A stretch of 64,000 nt of DNA from assembly GCA_000146465.1 (NCBI GenBank), contig CP001947.1. One strand, given 5' to 3'. Numbering within the stretch: the first letter of the stretch is position 1; the number at the start of each line of letters is the position of its first letter. Positions 26,258 through 63,951 of this stretch are shown here, one piece after another. The notes below the pieces were generated by a model. That model was not told the origin of the DNA, searched no databases, and saw nothing but the letters and a program-made list of their open reading frames with translations. The position numbers and the translations under genes were made by a program.

Positions 26258-27652
26258 ATGGAAAAGAACACAAAGATCAAGGGCGGGTCCTTCAAAACCA
26301 TGGGATTGGATTACAGACTTCTCCGAAACATTCTTTACGAAAACCCAACGCCAATTCAAAGAAAGACAATTCCGTTGGTTCTGGAGAGAAGGAGTCTAAT
26401 GGGGGTTGGAAGAACAGGGAGTGGAAAGACACTATGCTATCTCATCCCTGCTGTGCAACGAGCCATCGAGGGAGAAAGAACACTTGTGATTGCCCCTACC
26501 AAGGAGCTTGTCACCCAGGTCAGAAGGGTACTGAAGAGACTGGCAAGAGGGATAGAGGATGTATGGAAGCTCATTGAAATCAACACTCCAGGAAATATTC
26601 AAAGCACAAGTGTTGAGATGCTGGTGGTTGATGAAATAGATAGAATTCTGGAAGAGCCAAGCCTGAAGTTGGTATTTGATAGGATAAGCGAAGAGGTGGC
26701 GTGCCAGAAGGTATTCTTTAGTGCAACACTCCCAGATCATCCATTGAACATAAAGGTAGTTGAAATAGAGGCCAAGATAAACGAGACGGTTAAGCATTTT
26801 TTCTTCTATGTTCCAAGTGAGAGCAAGGAGGCAGCTCTGCTTCGAGTATTGGATAAGACAAGAAAGACAATTGTGTTTGTTGCAACTAAGTATGCTGTGG
26901 AATTGCTTCTAGAGATCCTTAACAAAAACAATTTCGAGTCACGTGGAATTTATTCTTCAATGGACGATGAGGCAAGAAGAACCAATTTCAAAGACTTCAA
27001 CTCTTCCAAGTTCAACATTCTTGTTGTGACGGATGTTGCAGCACGTGGACTAGACATCCCATATCTTGACACTGTTGTAAACTATGATCTGTGTGACGAA
27101 AGGACATTTCTGCACAGGGTTGGGCGTGTTCGGGGAATGGGAGTGCAATACAGCTTTGTGACATACACAGATGTCTTTCACTTCTTCAACATACAGGAAA
27201 CATATCTTCCCAATGTTGAGATCGGAACAATTCCTCAGGAGTATCTAGATGTTTATGACTTCGGGGAATTTGAGCATCTAAAGTCTGTTGCAAACAAAGG
27301 ACATCAGAAATGCCTTGAATTTAGAAGAAAAGTCAGTGTTCCGGCCGAGTACAAAGACAAGATAAAGGGATTCAAAACTCATTCTATGTTTGAGCATAAG
27401 GAAACACTTCTTGACCAGCTTAAAGAGATGGAGAGCCGCAAGACATTACCTCGAAAGGAAGATGAAAAAGTAGAAAACAAAGAGTACAGAGACCAGACAT
27501 TTATACCCTATGCCCGTAAGGACTCTAGAATTCATTCATCTGCGTTTGGAGTGGCGAAAGATGATTACGTCAGAGAAAGAAAGGAAAAATTTTCTTTTTC
27601 CATGATGAGGAGGAGAACAGCAAAGAAAACGGCGGAAACAAGTAAAAAATAA
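26258..27652 (+). CDS. DEAD-box ATP-dependent RNA helicase (sex-locus-type RNA helicase)
   Basis: Q motif, motif I GRTGSGKT, Ia APTKELV, II DEID (VVDEIDRIL), III SAT, VI HRVGRVRG. 464 aa. ATG confirmed. Confidence 0.85.
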   Translation: MEKNTKIKGGSFKTMGLDYRLLRNILYENPTPIQRKTIPLVLERRSLMGVGRTGSGKTLCYLIPAVQRAIEGERTLVIAPTKELVTQVRRVLKRLARGIEDVWKLIEINTPGNIQSTSVEMLVVDEIDRILEEPSLKLVFDRISEEVACQKVFFSATLPDHPLNIKVVEIEAKINETVKHFFFYVPSESKEAALLRVLDKTRKTIVFVATKYAVELLLEILNKNNFESRGIYSSMDDEARRTNFKDFNSSKFNILVVTDVAARGLDIPYLDTVVNYDLCDERTFLHRVGRVRGMGVQYSFVTYTDVFHFFNIQETYLPNVEIGTIPQEYLDVYDFGEFEHLKSVANKGHQKCLEFRRKVSVPAEYKDKIKGFKTHSMFEHKETLLDQLKEMESRKTLPRKEDEKVENKEYRDQTFIPYARKDSRIHSSAFGVAKDDYVRERKEKFSFSMMRRRTAKKTAETSKK

Positions 27653-27749
27653 ACGAATTTTATTGGCAAGTAAGTTGTTGTGTCTTCTTAGTTATAAAGG
27701 TTTTCAAGAAATCAGGGTTTTGGAATTGTGTATCTCCTTTAAAGTAGGA

Positions 27750-27822
27750 GGCCTCATAGCTCAATGGTTAGAGTGTCGGCCTACGGAGCCGAAGGTTGAG
27801 GGTTCGAGTCCCTCTGGGGTCG
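27750..27822 (+). tRNA. tRNA-Arg (anticodon ACG)
   Basis: Cloverleaf: acceptor GGCCTCA/TGGGGTC, D-arm GCTC-AATGGTTA-GAGT, anticodon stem TCGGC/GCCGA with loop CTACGGA, T-arm GAGGG-TTCGAGT-CCCTC, discriminator G. No encoded CCA. Confidence 0.85.
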
Positions 27823-28404
27823 GCTGTCTTTTGTGCTTCTTTTTTTCTTCCTAGACTTTTTCATCCACATCTCTAGTGCATTGCTTCTGTATCTGCCCTG
27901 CACATCTTCATCCAACGAGTTCCACATCTTAATGAACATACGAACGTTTTCTTCTGGAGACACATTTATGTCGCCACAGATGTCGAAGAGTTCGTTTACA
28001 AAGAAAAGATATCCTGAACACTCCCATCGCTGTATATCCCGTATTTTAACATATTTTCTTAGCTTCTTTATCGTGTTTGTATCATTGACTAAATTGCCGT
28101 CGTCACAGCCATCCAACTCATTGGCTTCCTCAAGATCTTTATTGCATTTTTCCACATACATATTCCTCTCCTCGTCCGGCATTTCCTTCCATACAGCCAT
28201 CATATTCAAGGCAGTATCGACACAACTTGTGTATTTGTAATTATTACTTTGGAAAAAGTCCCTGGCAAAGACCGTGAATGGAGATCTCTGCTTGGTAGGC
28301 ATTGAATACAAGGATTCAAAAAATTTCATCTCGGGGGTATGTATCTTCGAAAAATACACCAAAGGAATTAGATAGTACAGTAGAGGCCAATAAATAGAGT
28401 CCAT
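27781..28404 (-). CDS. HMG-box protein (divergent single HMG box with extended C-terminal region)
   Basis: HMG box PTKQRSPFTVFARDFF...WKEMPDEERNMYVEK. The hydrophobic first 25 aa suggest the real start may be M26 (about 28329). The last 14 codons (...RDSNPQPSAP) are encoded antisense to the tRNA-Arg. Confidence 0.6.
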   Translation of the reverse strand: MDSIYWPLLYYLIPLVYFSKIHTPEMKFFESLYSMPTKQRSPFTVFARDFFQSNNYKYTSCVDTALNMMAVWKEMPDEERNMYVEKCNKDLEEANELDGCDDGNLVNDTNTIKKLRKYVKIRDIQRWECSGYLFFVNELFDICGDINVSPEENVRMFIKMWNSLDEDVQGRYRSNALEMWMKKSRKKKRSTKDSRPQRDSNPQPSAP

Positions 28405-28411
28405 TTAATCC

Positions 28412-28957
28412 CTATTTTCCCACCAGGCCCGAATTCACATTCTTTTCTTCAGCAATCTTGTTATAGACGGCCTTCTCGTCGTCGCTGAGTTCTTTCCATC
28501 TCTTTGCAACAGCAGACGTAGTCTCCATCATCGTGAAGCTGGGATTCTCTTCAGAAACAGCTTTTCGGACTGCCTTAAAGAACTCGTTGTACCCAGTTAC
28601 TTTCTTGGCTCCTTTTTTCTTTCTTCCAGCTGCTGCTTCATCAGCTGCAACCTTCTCAAGATAATCCTGGTACTCATCGCTCTTCTTGTATTCCTCAACC
28701 TTTGCCAGATATAGCTCTCTCTCCTTGTTTGAAATCTTGTTGTATTCCTCTCTTTCCTCATCAGAGAGCTTCTTCCACATCTCAGAAATAGATCTTCCTT
28801 GGTCTGCTACGGGTAGCTTGCTCAGTTCCTCATTCTTCTTCCTTTGCTCCTGCCCAAAAATAAAGTACCCCGACATAGGCTTCTTCGGTGCATTGGGGTC
28901 CTTGCGTTTTTTTACTGCCGCTTTACTCCTTGGCTTTTTGCTCTTCTCAGTTACCAT
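28412..28957 (-). CDS. HMG-box protein with two HMGB-type boxes
   Basis: Box 1 PKKPMSGYFIFGQEQRKK...ISEMWKKLSDEEREEY. Box 2 KKVTGYNEFFKAVRK...VAKRWKELSDDEKAVY. ATG confirmed. Only 7 bp from the downstream HMG gene. Confidence 0.8.
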   Translation of the reverse strand: MVTEKSKKPRSKAAVKKRKDPNAPKKPMSGYFIFGQEQRKKNEELSKLPVADQGRSISEMWKKLSDEEREEYNKISNKERELYLAKVEEYKKSDEYQDYLEKVAADEAAAGRKKKGAKKVTGYNEFFKAVRKAVSEENPSFTMMETTSAVAKRWKELSDDEKAVYNKIAEEKNVNSGLVGK

Positions 28958-29083
28958 AATGATGGGGGTAGAAGAAATAGCTTATAAAATTTTAATAAGA
29001 ACCAGCCCAGTCGATATTTTACAGTTAAATCGCCCTTCTAACCTCTTATCATATGCAGTAGATACCAATTGATAGAGTGTCTT

Positions 29084-29860
29084 TTACAAAATATCATTCT
29101 CGGGCCTGAGTCTCTCCTTAACAATCTCAAGTAGCTTCTTCACCTCGGAAAGCATAGCATGTGTTGAAATGTATTCCTCTATGACTCTGTGTGCCTCATT
29201 CAAGTCTCCCTGAAGTGCATTACATACCTCCTTCTCATCTCCACTGACATCAAGATCTAGAGGCGTCCCCTCGATGGAATAGCAGAGAAATCCACAGAAG
29301 GTGTATATGTTTTCCTTGAACCCCAAGAATATTTTAGCTGCCTCTCCATACCTTCCAAGTTCTATATACACCTCTGCAATGTCTCTCATTGCCTTTTTCT
29401 TATGATGCTTCCAGCTGCTTCCACAGTAGCACTCAGCAACCTTCTGCAGGCATTCCAGGCATCCCTCGAGATTTCCTTCCTTTCTTAGTATCTCAGATGC
29501 TCTTTGGAAACTCACTGCTGCCAAGCTCTCTCGTCCACATTGCTTGGAATACATCCCAGACTTCTTATATGCCGAAATGGCTTTTTCAGGATATTCATCC
29601 TCACATGTCTGTGCTATCTTCTCATACACCTGCGAAGCTTGATATCTTCCATACTCTCCGTCCTCCATCTCATAGGTCTTTGCCGCCTCCTCGTAGTATC
29701 GTATCTTTTCAGATGTCTCCTCTTCCATATTTCCAATCTCCATGAAAATCTCCGCAGAGCTTTCATAGTCTGGCGATGAAAACAGATTGAATGGAAATGC
29801 TCCCTTTGTCCTCAATTTCTCTGCTTCCTTTAGTTTTCTGGTTTTGGATTCAGCATCCAT
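29084..29860 (-). CDS. SEC17: alpha-soluble NSF attachment protein (alpha-SNAP/Sec17)
   Basis: TPR-like helical repeats (AAKTYE..., AISAYKKSG..., AAKIFLGFKE). N-terminus LSGFEKAEVLKK...F.LF. The track start is TTG. First ATG (MDAESKT...) is at 29860. Confidence 0.7.
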   Translation of the reverse strand: MDAESKTRKLKEAEKLRTKGAFPFNLFSSPDYESSAEIFMEIGNMEEETSEKIRYYEEAAKTYEMEDGEYGRYQASQVYEKIAQTCEDEYPEKAISAYKKSGMYSKQCGRESLAAVSFQRASEILRKEGNLEGCLECLQKVAECYCGSSWKHHKKKAMRDIAEVYIELGRYGEAAKIFLGFKENIYTFCGFLCYSIEGTPLDLDVSGDEKEVCNALQGDLNEAHRVIEEYISTHAMLSEVKKLLEIVKERLRPENDIL

Positions 29861-29966
29861 GGGCCCCTTCCCGTGTGTTTTTTTAAGCACCTCCGCTTTT
29901 TCAAATCCAGAGAGCAACCTGCACAAAACTTTATTTAATAAACATCAATAAATCTATCCTGAAGAC

Positions 29967-30890
29967 TTAATGGGAGCAGAAGGGCTTTCTGCTGAGATTG
30001 TATATTAGTATCCCCACAATACTTATGGCTAATCCTGCATAGTTCAAACTGCTTAGGGTGATATCTTTTGTTACTATTGCATAAAAAATAATTATCAGCT
30101 CCTTAACAATCCCTGCAACACTTAGAAACACAACACCGGTTTCCGAAACAAGCATGAACTCTGCACATAGTAGCGTAAATGATAGGACCCCGCAAAGAGA
30201 AATATACCCAAAATTTCGTAGGGCAGCATCAAACGTGTTGAAAAACCTAGATGTTGCTATCTCCATGAGACCTTCAACATGCAAAGAAATTAAGAGGAGG
30301 AGGAACGATATGGGAAGGCAAAGGTCCCTTATGGTTACAAGAATTCCTTCCTTCCGGACTTCCTGATTTCTAATAAGGTATTGGACAAACGCCCATCGGA
30401 ACCCTGCCATCAAAGAAGCAAACGAGATGGTTCCGAATCCAATAATATCAAAGCTTGTGTTTTTTATTGACGTGAGAAACACTCCCACGCCAATGGTGAA
30501 TATCGTCAGAAAAAACGTTATCGATGGTTTCTCGATCCCAAGTGCAAATCCAAATAACAGAATAAACACCGGAGAAGAAGACTTCACCATTGTGTAGAAT
30601 GCAAGGGTTGCCGACCTTAGAGATATGGATGAAAGGCCTATGTCTGTGGCTCCTGCAAGGGCACATGGAAACGAAGGCCCAAAGTAATTAGGCTTTGGAG
30701 CTTTTTCCTTCTGAAACCTCAGGGCTGTGGATGCTCCGAAAAAATGGATCAGGTTCTGCATGGACGCCTTGAACAAGGGAAAGGAGAAATTGTATGTCTT
30801 TTTGGAAAGCAGAAACGATGTTAGATATCCCAGGCTTAATGACAGAACATAATACATGAGCACTAATCCCAGTACTCTGATTCTGTTCAT
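29967..30890 (-). CDS. TPT: triose-phosphate/sugar-phosphate transporter family protein (TPT, DMT superfamily)
   Basis: About 8-10 TM helices. TPT signatures ATLAFYTMVKSSSPVFILLFGFALGIEKPS and NYAGLAISIVGILIYN. ATG confirmed. Confidence 0.8.
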   Translation of the reverse strand: MNRIRVLGLVLMYYVLSLSLGYLTSFLLSKKTYNFSFPLFKASMQNLIHFFGASTALRFQKEKAPKPNYFGPSFPCALAGATDIGLSSISLRSATLAFYTMVKSSSPVFILLFGFALGIEKPSITFFLTIFTIGVGVFLTSIKNTSFDIIGFGTISFASLMAGFRWAFVQYLIRNQEVRKEGILVTIRDLCLPISFLLLLISLHVEGLMEIATSRFFNTFDAALRNFGYISLCGVLSFTLLCAEFMLVSETGVVFLSVAGIVKELIIIFYAIVTKDITLSSLNYAGLAISIVGILIYNLSRKPFCSH

Positions 30891-31016: not shown

Positions 31017-31210
31017 CTACCTCTCAAGCCAATCGGCTTTGATCAAGTGTAGTATCTGTTCTTGCCAGTGTAAGAACTGGCATTATCCGTAAGGATAAAT
31101 TCATCGAATTTTTGGATGGCAGGGTGATGTAGAGGAGCTTGAGCGCTTGCGTTTCGGCCAATCTACTTGAGGTCTGCAGGCTTCTGGGCTGTAGAGCCTA
31201 GGAAAAGCCG
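31017..31210 (+). ncRNA. U2: U2 spliceosomal snRNA
   Basis: GGCUUUGAUCAAGUGUAGUAUCUGUUCUUGCCAGUGUAAGAACUGGCA is near-identical to the universal U2 5' region (branch-point interaction GUAGUA, stem IIa). Stem-loop I AAGCC-AAUC-GGCUU. Sm site AAUUUUUGG at about 31107. 3' stem-loops then a T7 run at 31211-17. Confidence 0.85.
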
Positions 31211-31268
31211 TTTTTTTGTAATGTTTTCTGTTCTATTTCTTTTATCCAAGGATCCCCAACTCAAAGAA

Positions 31269-32072
31269 ATGAAGTATGCGGAGATCATCATAGGGCCTCC
31301 TGGAAGCGGGAAGTCTACCTATGTCATGAATAAAAAGACATGGCTCTCCCATAGAAGTCCATACACAATAAATCTTGATCCGGGGAATTCCAACTCCAAG
31401 GAGTTTGACTATTCGATATGCTCCATCTCGTCGTCTTCGGTATATCAAGAAAAACATGATGTTGGGCCTAACATGTCCACAAAATGCATTTTAGAGGAAT
31501 TTGTTACTCGTATCGATGAGTTCTTCCGGGAGAACATTGAAGATACAGACCACTACGTCCTAATAGATTTTCCAGGACAGGTGGAATTTTTTATATCCAG
31601 CGATATTCCCAACAGAATCATCAGATATCTTAAAAGAAATGGATATTCGGTTGTGGTTTTGAATCTTATCGACCTGGTATTCTTCTCGAACAGTCACTCG
31701 CTGGTTTCATCGTATCTAATCTCGACATTGTGCCTCTGTCTTCTTGAGTCGGCCCAGATCAACATCATCAGCAAATGCGACAATTGGAAAAGTCTTGAGA
31801 TGGAGTATCCGTTGGAAGAGATTGCATCGTTGGAATGTCTAGAGGAGATTCCGAGGAAGAAAAAGTTGTATAGTGAGATGATCTCTTTTGTCCTCAACCA
31901 AGGACTGCTACTGTATGAAATCCTGGACTATGACAATCCAGACTCTGTTCTAAATCTTCAGGTTGGCATAGACAGAGCAAGCGGGTTGTTTTTTGAAGAC
32001 AACTACTTTGACACCGAGAAAATAACAAGGATTCCTTCCAGAGATGAGGTTTTCTCAAAATACAAATCCTAA
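31269..32072 (+). CDS. GPN-loop GTPase (XAB1/Npa3 family)
   Basis: P-loop IIIGPPGSGKSTY. GPN-like LDPGN. The track start is upstream run-through. In-frame ATG (MKYAEIIIGPPG) is at 31269. Confidence 0.65.
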   Translation: MKYAEIIIGPPGSGKSTYVMNKKTWLSHRSPYTINLDPGNSNSKEFDYSICSISSSSVYQEKHDVGPNMSTKCILEEFVTRIDEFFRENIEDTDHYVLIDFPGQVEFFISSDIPNRIIRYLKRNGYSVVVLNLIDLVFFSNSHSLVSSYLISTLCLCLLESAQINIISKCDNWKSLEMEYPLEEIASLECLEEIPRKKKLYSEMISFVLNQGLLLYEILDYDNPDSVLNLQVGIDRASGLFFEDNYFDTEKITRIPSRDEVFSKYKS

Positions 32073-63879: not shown

Positions 63880-63951
63880 GGTTGCGTGGTGTAATGGTTA
63901 TCACTTCAGACTCTGAATCTGACAATCTGAGTTCGAATCTCGGCGCGACCA
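63880..63951 (+). tRNA. tRNA-Gln (anticodon CUG)
   Basis: GGTTGCGTGGTGTAATGGTTATCACTTCAGACTCTGAATCTGACAATCTGAGTTCGAATCTCGGCGCGACC + A. Acceptor GGTTGCG/CGCGACC, anticodon loop CTCTGAA, T-loop TTCGAAT. Close to canonical eukaryotic tRNA-Gln. Confidence 0.85.

Follow-up and report, generated by a model that had tools for sequence, protein, structure and literature searches.

In the microsporidian Encephalitozoon intestinalis, the sex-related locus includes a gene known as "weak HMG" (Eint_061210), which shares its last 42 nucleotides (nt) with a transfer RNA (tRNA) gene, tRNA-Arg(ACG), on the opposite strand, and takes its stop codon from it. The pair lies in a stretch of 64,000 nt, here called the window, from chromosome VI of E. 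intestinalis ATCC 50506 (contig CP001947.1, assembly GCA_000146465.1); this assignment is based on two matches of 100% identity, that of the open reading frame (ORF) under study to Eint_061210 and that of the adjoining helicase to the E. intestinalis DEAD-box helicase. The explanation we favor, and consider likely, is that an unconstrained basic tail of the weak-HMG protein reads into the tRNA gene, whose antisense strand donates the stop codon; the overlap would then be a tolerated side-effect of genome compaction and not a new mechanism. An earlier note on this DNA, made from the sequence alone, had offered two alternatives, a genuine overlap of two genes or the loss of the original stop codon of the HMG gene with read-through into the tRNA. 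Comparative data support each of these; what did not stand is their exclusiveness, since both hold together.

The overlapping gene pair

The earlier note had placed tRNA-Arg(ACG), 73 nt long, at 27750..27822 on the plus strand, and ARAGORN and Rfam agree on this gene. It had also seen an ORF terminating 42 nt inside the tRNA, as is the case: the weak-HMG coding sequence (CDS; 27781..28329, minus strand, 182 amino acids plus stop) ends with a TAG at 27781..27783 (minus strand), the reverse complement of tRNA C32-U33-A34, which belong to the anticodon loop and include the wobble base A34. The shared interval, 27781..27822, is antisense to tRNA positions 32-73 and holds not 14 codons, as had been counted, but 13 sense codons (RPQRDSNPQPSAP) and the TAG. 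The T-arm and acceptor, to which the overlap had been ascribed, are both part of it, but it goes further, through the variable loop and the 3' strand of the stem of the anticodon arm to positions 32-38 of the anticodon loop; at its other end it reaches the discriminator base. The RNA polymerase III (Pol III) terminator is also within the CDS, which brings the overlap of the tRNA transcription unit with weak-HMG to at least ~52 nt. This terminator consists of T-runs on the plus strand, T4 at 27829..27832 and T7 at 27840..27846, which are Lys/Arg codons on the other strand; the T4 run begins 7 nt 3' of the tRNA end.

An assembly or sequencing error can be ruled out as the source of the overlap. 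A Logan contig from an independent run (L007, 1709 nt, run ERR13302946), retrieved with a 207-amino-acid version of the ORF as the query, shows 100% identity to window positions 27500..29208, and the same 182-amino-acid weak-HMG protein has been deposited under several E. intestinalis accessions. No poly(A) ends were found on this contig, which gives support for the sequence only and is silent on transcripts.

The earlier note had allowed that the tRNA might prove mis-folded under covariance scoring; instead, Rfam model RF00005 matches it over model positions 1-71 of 71 with 67.3 bits (gathering score 29; E=1.7e-12). Both internal promoter elements could be read from the sequence, and they fit the consensuses given for E. 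cuniculi tRNA genes (box A, TRGYNNANNNG; box B, GWTCRANNC; PMC5499648): box A (TAGCTCAATGG, 27757..27767, plus strand) lies outside the overlap, and box B (GTTCGAGTC, 27802..27810, plus strand) lies inside it, antisense to the residues "DSN" of the protein. Across the 11 taxa compared below, which yield 10 distinct tRNA sequences, every one of the 210 cells of the cloverleaf is a standard pair, and 8 of the 21 pairs are altered on both sides; none of 500 shuffles reaches the covariation score of the tRNA, and pairing with slid partners drops to 29-55%. A run of at least four T follows the tRNA within 0-8 nt in 10 of the 11 taxa and after 16 nt in E. hellem. By its sequence, tRNA-Arg(ACG) appears to be a functional gene. 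With 46 tRNA genes per genome (PMC4355639), most tRNA isoacceptors are presumably single-copy.

The protein partner is 100% identical to P0001 and has orthologues in the 10 other taxa. The first ATG of the minus-strand ORF would give 207 amino acids (27781..28404), 25 codons more than the annotated start at ATG 28329; that longer form would leave 7 nt after the stop codon of the neighboring HMG gene, whereas ATG 28329 gives a spacer of ~82 nt, as in E. cuniculi, and comparison with the orthologues supports this downstream start and its 182-amino-acid product. In calling the gene simply an HMG gene, the earlier note had the family right, weak-HMG being a divergent member, but not the gene, as the canonical double HMG-box gene lies one ORF further on (28412..28957, minus strand; Pfam HMG_box E=5.4e-21, in two stretches; Lee et al., 2010). 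A single weak-HMG sequence matches Pfam HMG_box with E=0.0075 and 17.1 bits, below the cut-off of 25.4, hence the name "weak HMG." A profile of the 11 orthologues matches TFAM (E=1.6e-13, in two stretches), Abf2 (5e-09) and HMGB1 (1e-07), and hhalign pairs weak-HMG with the adjoining HMG protein along 144 columns that cover both boxes (92.5% probability); weak-HMG is therefore a diverged two-HMG-box protein. It probably arose as a tandem duplicate of the neighboring double HMG-box gene, and the alignment across both boxes suggests that the duplication is old. The AlphaFold2 model, built on a 7-sequence alignment, is poor overall (mean predicted local distance difference test score, pLDDT, 52.7), with only residues ~41-97, which are helical, predicted confidently.

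The ratio of nonsynonymous to synonymous substitution rates (dN/dS) in the weak-HMG core is 0.09-0.32 in informative pairs; this and the conservation across 11 taxa rule out a pseudogene or a spurious ORF. With both partners judged functional and 42 nt shared between them, the comparisons confirm weak-HMG and tRNA-Arg(ACG) as a gene pair that genuinely overlaps at the DNA level.

As a separate observation, the closest relatives of the weak-HMG profile among solved structures are TFAM and Abf2, which are mitochondrial two-box HMG proteins; to our knowledge E. intestinalis is without a mitochondrial genome.

Orthologous loci

The comparison covered E. intestinalis, E. cuniculi (two strains), E. 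romaleae, E. hellem, Ordospora colligata, O. pajunii and five Logan assemblies (SRR21633403, SRR29713747, SRR23946965, SRR21023581 and DRR353006); a profile search with the 11-sequence weak-HMG alignment returned no further taxa. Relatives had been proposed in the earlier note as a check on the HMG C-terminus and on the tRNA position. The tRNA holds the same place in all 11 taxa, between the helicase gene on its own strand and weak-HMG converging from the other side, and the weak-HMG ORF ends within the tRNA in 8 of the 11, with overlaps of 27, 42 or 62 nt.

The commonest form is that of E. intestinalis. The same TAG at C32-U33-A34 closes the ORF, with the same 42-nt overlap, in E. cuniculi, E. 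hellem, SRR21633403, O. colligata and O. pajunii. In E. romaleae a 1-nt length difference brings another antisense frame into the tRNA, and the protein runs to …EGLEPSTFGSVGRHSNH before a TGA opposite tRNA positions 12-14 (62-nt overlap). The ORF of SRR29713747 is closed by a TAG made in the variable loop of the tRNA (CTAG) and ends with ...RGDSNP (27-nt overlap). The three remaining taxa have no overlap and a stop codon of their own, 37 nt before the tRNA in SRR23946965, 38 nt in SRR21023581 and 126 nt in DRR353006.

Placed on a rough neighbor-joining tree of the helicase, the overlap is found in three groups: the Encephalitozoon clade, Ordospora and a third clade, of which a single member has it. 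Such a distribution would fit either an ancestral overlap with three losses or a recurrent one, and the state in which weak-HMG is without its own stop codon would date back at least to the ancestor of Encephalitozoon and Ordospora, or else would have arisen repeatedly. The GenBank proteins of four Encephalitozoon species and of O. colligata already carry the tRNA-encoded tail.

Two observations concern Ordospora. In O. pajunii, weak-HMG is intact (187 amino acids, L011 5165..5728, minus strand), ends with ...KRLQGGSNPQPSVP and shares sequence with the tRNA; the NCBI assembly has no gene call for it, and the annotation seems to have overlooked it. In Ordospora, 245-360 nt separate the helicase stop codon from the tRNA (L008 4890..5249, L011 4890..5134), compared with 53-122 nt in all other taxa; local compaction on one side of the tRNA is thus not tied to that on the other.

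The C-terminal tail

Between the conserved core of weak-HMG (ending …YRxxAL) and the tRNA lies a stretch of 51-195 nt that is A/G-rich, is rich in codons for Lys and Arg, and carries many indels among the 11 taxa. Beyond it, where the protein is read from the antisense strand of the tRNA, the end of the tail is RPQRDSNPQPSAP in Encephalitozoon versus RLQGGSNPQPSVP in Ordospora, and the differences between the two genera fall at stem pairs that are altered on both sides, namely 31-39 (C-G to U-A), 50-64 (A-U to G-C) and acceptor pairs. The alignment thus shows substitutions in the tail to track the covariation of the tRNA, with the tRNA-encoded part of the protein constant only where the tRNA is constant. 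The last residues, DSNPQPSAP, are identical in E. intestinalis, E. cuniculi and E. hellem. The tail as a whole is not conserved as protein and appears to be dispensable or unconstrained, in view of the other frame used by E. romaleae, the earlier stops of three lineages and the substitutions that mirror stem compensation. A constrained RNA gene can in this way dictate a stretch of protein, the tail changing only at co-varying tRNA stems.

Transcription

Data on transcripts come from E. cuniculi, for which Grisdale et al. (2013) provide tables of fragments per kilobase per million (FPKM) from unstranded polyA+ RNA sequencing at three time-points; the values given here are from part of the table. 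Weak-HMG is ECU06_1260, and by gene order the helicase is 1250, HMG 1270, SNAP 1280, TPT 1290 and GPN 1300. Two tags intercalated in this series, ECU06_1255 and ECU06_1295, were taken to be the tRNA and the U2 small nuclear RNA (snRNA), as the only two non-coding RNA genes of the locus fit them. FPKM values at the three time-points are 156, 126 and 126 for the presumed helicase, 64, 43 and 52 for the presumed tRNA-Arg(ACG), 134, 87 and 93 for weak-HMG, and 8, 4 and 9 for the presumed U2 snRNA. Other low tags ending in "5," likely non-coding RNAs as well, have FPKM values of 0.5-16 in the same part of the table, and tRNA, 5S and U2 genes are described as generally almost without reads (Grisdale et al., 2013). 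These values, from unstranded reads and a tag assigned by its fit, suggest that polyadenylated RNA covers the tRNA interval in E. cuniculi, and we tentatively infer that weak-HMG messenger RNAs (mRNAs) extend into or through the tRNA gene.

Candidate polyadenylation signals are to be found on the far side of the tRNA. On the weak-HMG strand, an AATAAA at 27659..27664 (minus strand) lies 86 nt beyond the 5' end of the tRNA, and if it were used the mRNA would cross the whole tRNA gene; an exact AATAAA occurs at the equivalent place in only 3 of the 11 taxa. Upstream of the tRNA on this strand there is neither AATAAA nor ATTAAA in E. intestinalis. SRR23946965, in which weak-HMG has its own upstream stop codon, has an AATAAA just before the tRNA. 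A stop codon completed by polyadenylation upstream of the tRNA, in the style of mitochondria or Blastocystis, is considered unlikely, as E. intestinalis lacks a suitable in-frame T or TA combined with an upstream poly(A) signal.

The helicase has an AATAAA of its own at 27648..27653 (plus strand), which overlaps the helicase stop codon and is invariant in six aligned loci of the Encephalitozoon clade. It stands back-to-back with the minus-strand element, which is not invariant in those six loci, and the two motifs may together serve both convergent genes as a bidirectional poly(A) signal.

Origin of the overlap

In the explanation that we favor, weak-HMG would be a diverged tandem paralog whose fast-evolving, Lys/Arg-rich tail came to abut the convergent tRNA-Arg(ACG) gene, with no room for, or no selection on, a dedicated stop codon and 3' spacer. 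Lacking these, the frame would stay open until the first stop codon in the antisense of the tRNA, usually the TAG complementary to C32-U33-A34. The tRNA would serve as a backstop for whichever frame arrives: the 73-nt tRNA of Encephalitozoon has antisense stops in all three frames, after 13, 17 and 19 codons, and hence any frame would be closed within 13-19 codons, whereas the 72-nt tRNA of the other taxa has an antisense stop in two of the three frames only. The 13 tRNA-encoded residues would be passengers, constant only because the tRNA is constrained. For the mRNA to carry its stop codon, RNA polymerase II (Pol II) would have to enter the tRNA gene at its 3' end and go on for 42 nt or more, probably across the entire gene, passing the Pol III terminator and box B on the way. 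Intergenic regions of ~115 bp and overlapping genes are known from such genomes (PMC4355639; PMC2607024), with which the extreme compaction invoked in the earlier note agrees, and in this setting an overlap is the expected outcome of spacer loss. A neutral, compaction-driven origin is what we infer from these considerations.

Several points weigh against this explanation. The distance from the core to the tRNA (27823..27873 in E. intestinalis, and its equivalents) is a multiple of three in 10 of the 11 taxa despite its variation in length, which the neutral model does not explain; this is a count across related lineages, uncorrected for kinship. When the tails of the overlapping taxa are shuffled with their composition preserved, no more than 12-43% of the trials for each taxon leave the frame open, a test that is only indicative, given that a coding tail is stop-free by definition and that the lineages are non-independent. 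Of the three substitutions that the overlapped part of the tRNA shows within Encephalitozoon, two leave the protein unchanged (Q, CAA/CAG; D, GAC/GAT), the third being G68A of E. romaleae, the taxon that reads a different frame. Taken together, these three results could point to weak selection on the open frame-0 tail in place of neutrality; they are confounded by shared ancestry, and we treat them as an unexplained residue. On the side of transcription, the signal over the tRNA interval could come from read-through of the helicase gene, and in yeast the Pol III factors bound at tRNA genes roadblock Pol II, with no tRNA gene being read through (PMC5052057), which means that productive transcription of an mRNA across an active tRNA gene cannot be taken for granted.

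The multiple-of-three distance, it may be observed, extends to the three taxa in which weak-HMG stops before the tRNA, where a constraint on frame is unexpected.

On another explanation, the tRNA-encoded C-terminal peptide, or at least the open frame-0 tail that leads up to the tRNA, would be functional and kept by selection on the protein. Besides the retention of frame 0 in 10 taxa, the closure of most shuffled tails and the synonymous changes, this would account for the identical or similar ...SNPQPS(A/V)P end in six taxa of two genera. We nevertheless find it improbable: the tail of E. romaleae is wholly different and in another frame, three taxa are without the tail and one ends at ...RGDSNP, and the residue differences between the genera sit exactly at the sites of tRNA stem covariation. 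Furthermore, the last ~16 residues are predicted as coil with a pLDDT of ~46-50, within a model that is itself poor.

The yeast roadblock also bears on whether the overlap exists beyond the level of ORFs and annotation. If weak-HMG mRNAs ended before the tRNA, at a roadblock or at an upstream poly(A) site, the tail would never be translated, and the protein would have to be made from messages that lack a stop or are terminated in some other way, or the gene would be barely expressed. The AATAAA before the tRNA in SRR23946965, the taxon with the upstream stop codon, would suit such an ending. Eight taxa, however, have no in-frame stop before the tRNA, so that messages ending upstream would be without one. 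Messenger RNAs that lack a stop codon are substrates for non-stop decay. Given also that weak-HMG is under purifying selection, that it is expressed in E. cuniculi at an FPKM of ~90-130 with coverage continuing over the inferred tRNA interval, and that the usual poly(A) motifs are missing upstream of the tRNA in E. intestinalis, we regard an overlap confined to annotation as very improbable.

Selection for regulation would give the arrangement a purpose. The tRNA gene, bound by TFIIIC and TFIIIB, could act as a shared roadblock or terminator for the helicase and weak-HMG genes, or antisense Pol II transcription across it could tune the production of tRNA-Arg(ACG), or be tuned in turn; in each case the output of a sex-locus HMG protein would be coupled to Pol III activity. 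The convergent arrangement in all 11 taxa, spanning Encephalitozoon, Ordospora and the third clade, speaks for this, as do the presence of the Pol III terminator and box B within the CDS, the absence of Pol II read-through at yeast tRNA genes and the reported interference of an antisense Pol III unit with mammalian Polr3e (PMC5358760). Microsporidian gene order, however, is generally frozen (PMC4355639), which makes conserved synteny weak evidence of function, and three lineages have parted the stop codon from the tRNA while retaining both genes; we consider regulation unlikely as the cause of the overlap. A broader version, in which three transcription units make common use of tRNA-Arg(ACG) as a conserved functional element, at once a stop donor for the weak-HMG protein, a roadblock end-point for helicase and weak-HMG mRNAs in a genome with hardly any spacer, and a link between HMG and Pol III (or between tRNA-Arg and antisense Pol II), strikes us as distinctly unlikely. 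Were it true, frame 0 running into the tRNA in 10 of the 11 taxa would reflect selection on the end-points of both translation and transcription.

Gene order around the overlap

The window contains the complete cluster of the sex-related locus (TPT, SNAP-like, HMG, weak HMG, RNA helicase), in an order that matches the published architecture; a microsporidian sex-related locus with exactly this architecture was described by Lee et al. (2010; PMC2866331), who named the divergent gene "weak HMG." The helicase gene (26258..27652, plus strand), convergent with weak-HMG, encodes a DDX54/Dbp10-like DEAD-box RNA helicase, as judged from its Pfam DEAD and Helicase_C domains and its orthologues. Beyond the canonical double HMG-box gene follow, both on the minus strand and identified from the ORF list and Pfam, the hypothetical SNAP-like gene (29084..29926) and the TPT transporter (29967..30890).

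A U2 snRNA gene (31017..31209, plus strand; Rfam 83.5 bits) occupies the short divergent spacer between the start of TPT (30890) and the gene for a GPN-loop GTPase, and the U2 snRNA gene of E. cuniculi has the same position (L001 136..306). Its 3' end overlaps an ORF called mechanically from a TTG start (31167..32072) and probably lies ~60 nt before the real ATG (~31269). The second tRNA gene of the 64-kb window, tRNA-Gln(CTG) (63880..63951, plus strand; Rfam 63.3 bits), is located near the window end; no substantial overlapping ORF or comparable overlap was found there.

Comparison with known systems

The literature searched contains no mention of an overlap between weak-HMG and a tRNA gene, or of a tRNA at the locus, and Lee et al. 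(2010; PMC2866331) mention neither a tRNA gene nor an overlap there. The kind of arrangement is known, being a compaction-driven gene overlap, and probably a transcript overlap, in microsporidia; the antisense tRNA partner, the stop codon in the anticodon loop, the span of two genera and the lineage variants (a switch of frame, a new stop codon within the tRNA, upstream stop codons) appear to be undescribed. If the mRNA truly crosses an active tRNA gene, the locus would offer a natural test case of Pol II and Pol III sharing DNA in a spacer-poor eukaryotic genome; otherwise it is an expected by-product of genome compaction.

The nearest relatives are the overlaps between coding sequences in E. 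cuniculi, E. intestinalis and Enterocytozoon bieneusi, where convergent 3' ends are likewise shared and spacers measure ~115-130 bp; convergent overlaps of up to 24 nt are on record for E. bieneusi (PMC2607024). In the present case the partner is a Pol III-transcribed tRNA gene, the overlap is longer (42-62 nt), the stop codon lies in the anticodon loop, and the arrangement is shared across genera. Overlapping and multigene transcription in microsporidia is a second parallel, to which a weak-HMG mRNA that ended beyond the tRNA or in the 3' end of the helicase would belong: according to summaries of Williams et al. (2005) and Corradi et al. (2008) in PMC3629993 and PMC4355639, compaction leads to mRNAs whose starts lie in upstream genes or whose ends lie in downstream ones. 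Those are overlaps of mRNA with mRNA.

Outside the microsporidia, tRNA roadblocks in yeast (PMC5052057) and, reportedly, the antisense MIR in mammalian Polr3e (PMC5358760) resemble the present locus in having a Pol III unit in the path of a Pol II gene, antisense to it. There, interference has been measured, whereas here it is only possible; here, moreover, the Pol III unit sits at the 3' end of the CDS and holds its stop codon. In animal mitochondria the 3' ends of coding sequences abut or overlap tRNA genes ("tRNA punctuation"), and stop codons depend on the tRNA context; most of these cases are same-strand and polycistronic, with transcripts cut by RNase P and RNase Z and stop codons completed by polyadenylation. 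At the weak-HMG locus, by contrast, the tRNA is antisense, nuclear and transcribed by a different polymerase, and it supplies a complete TAG.

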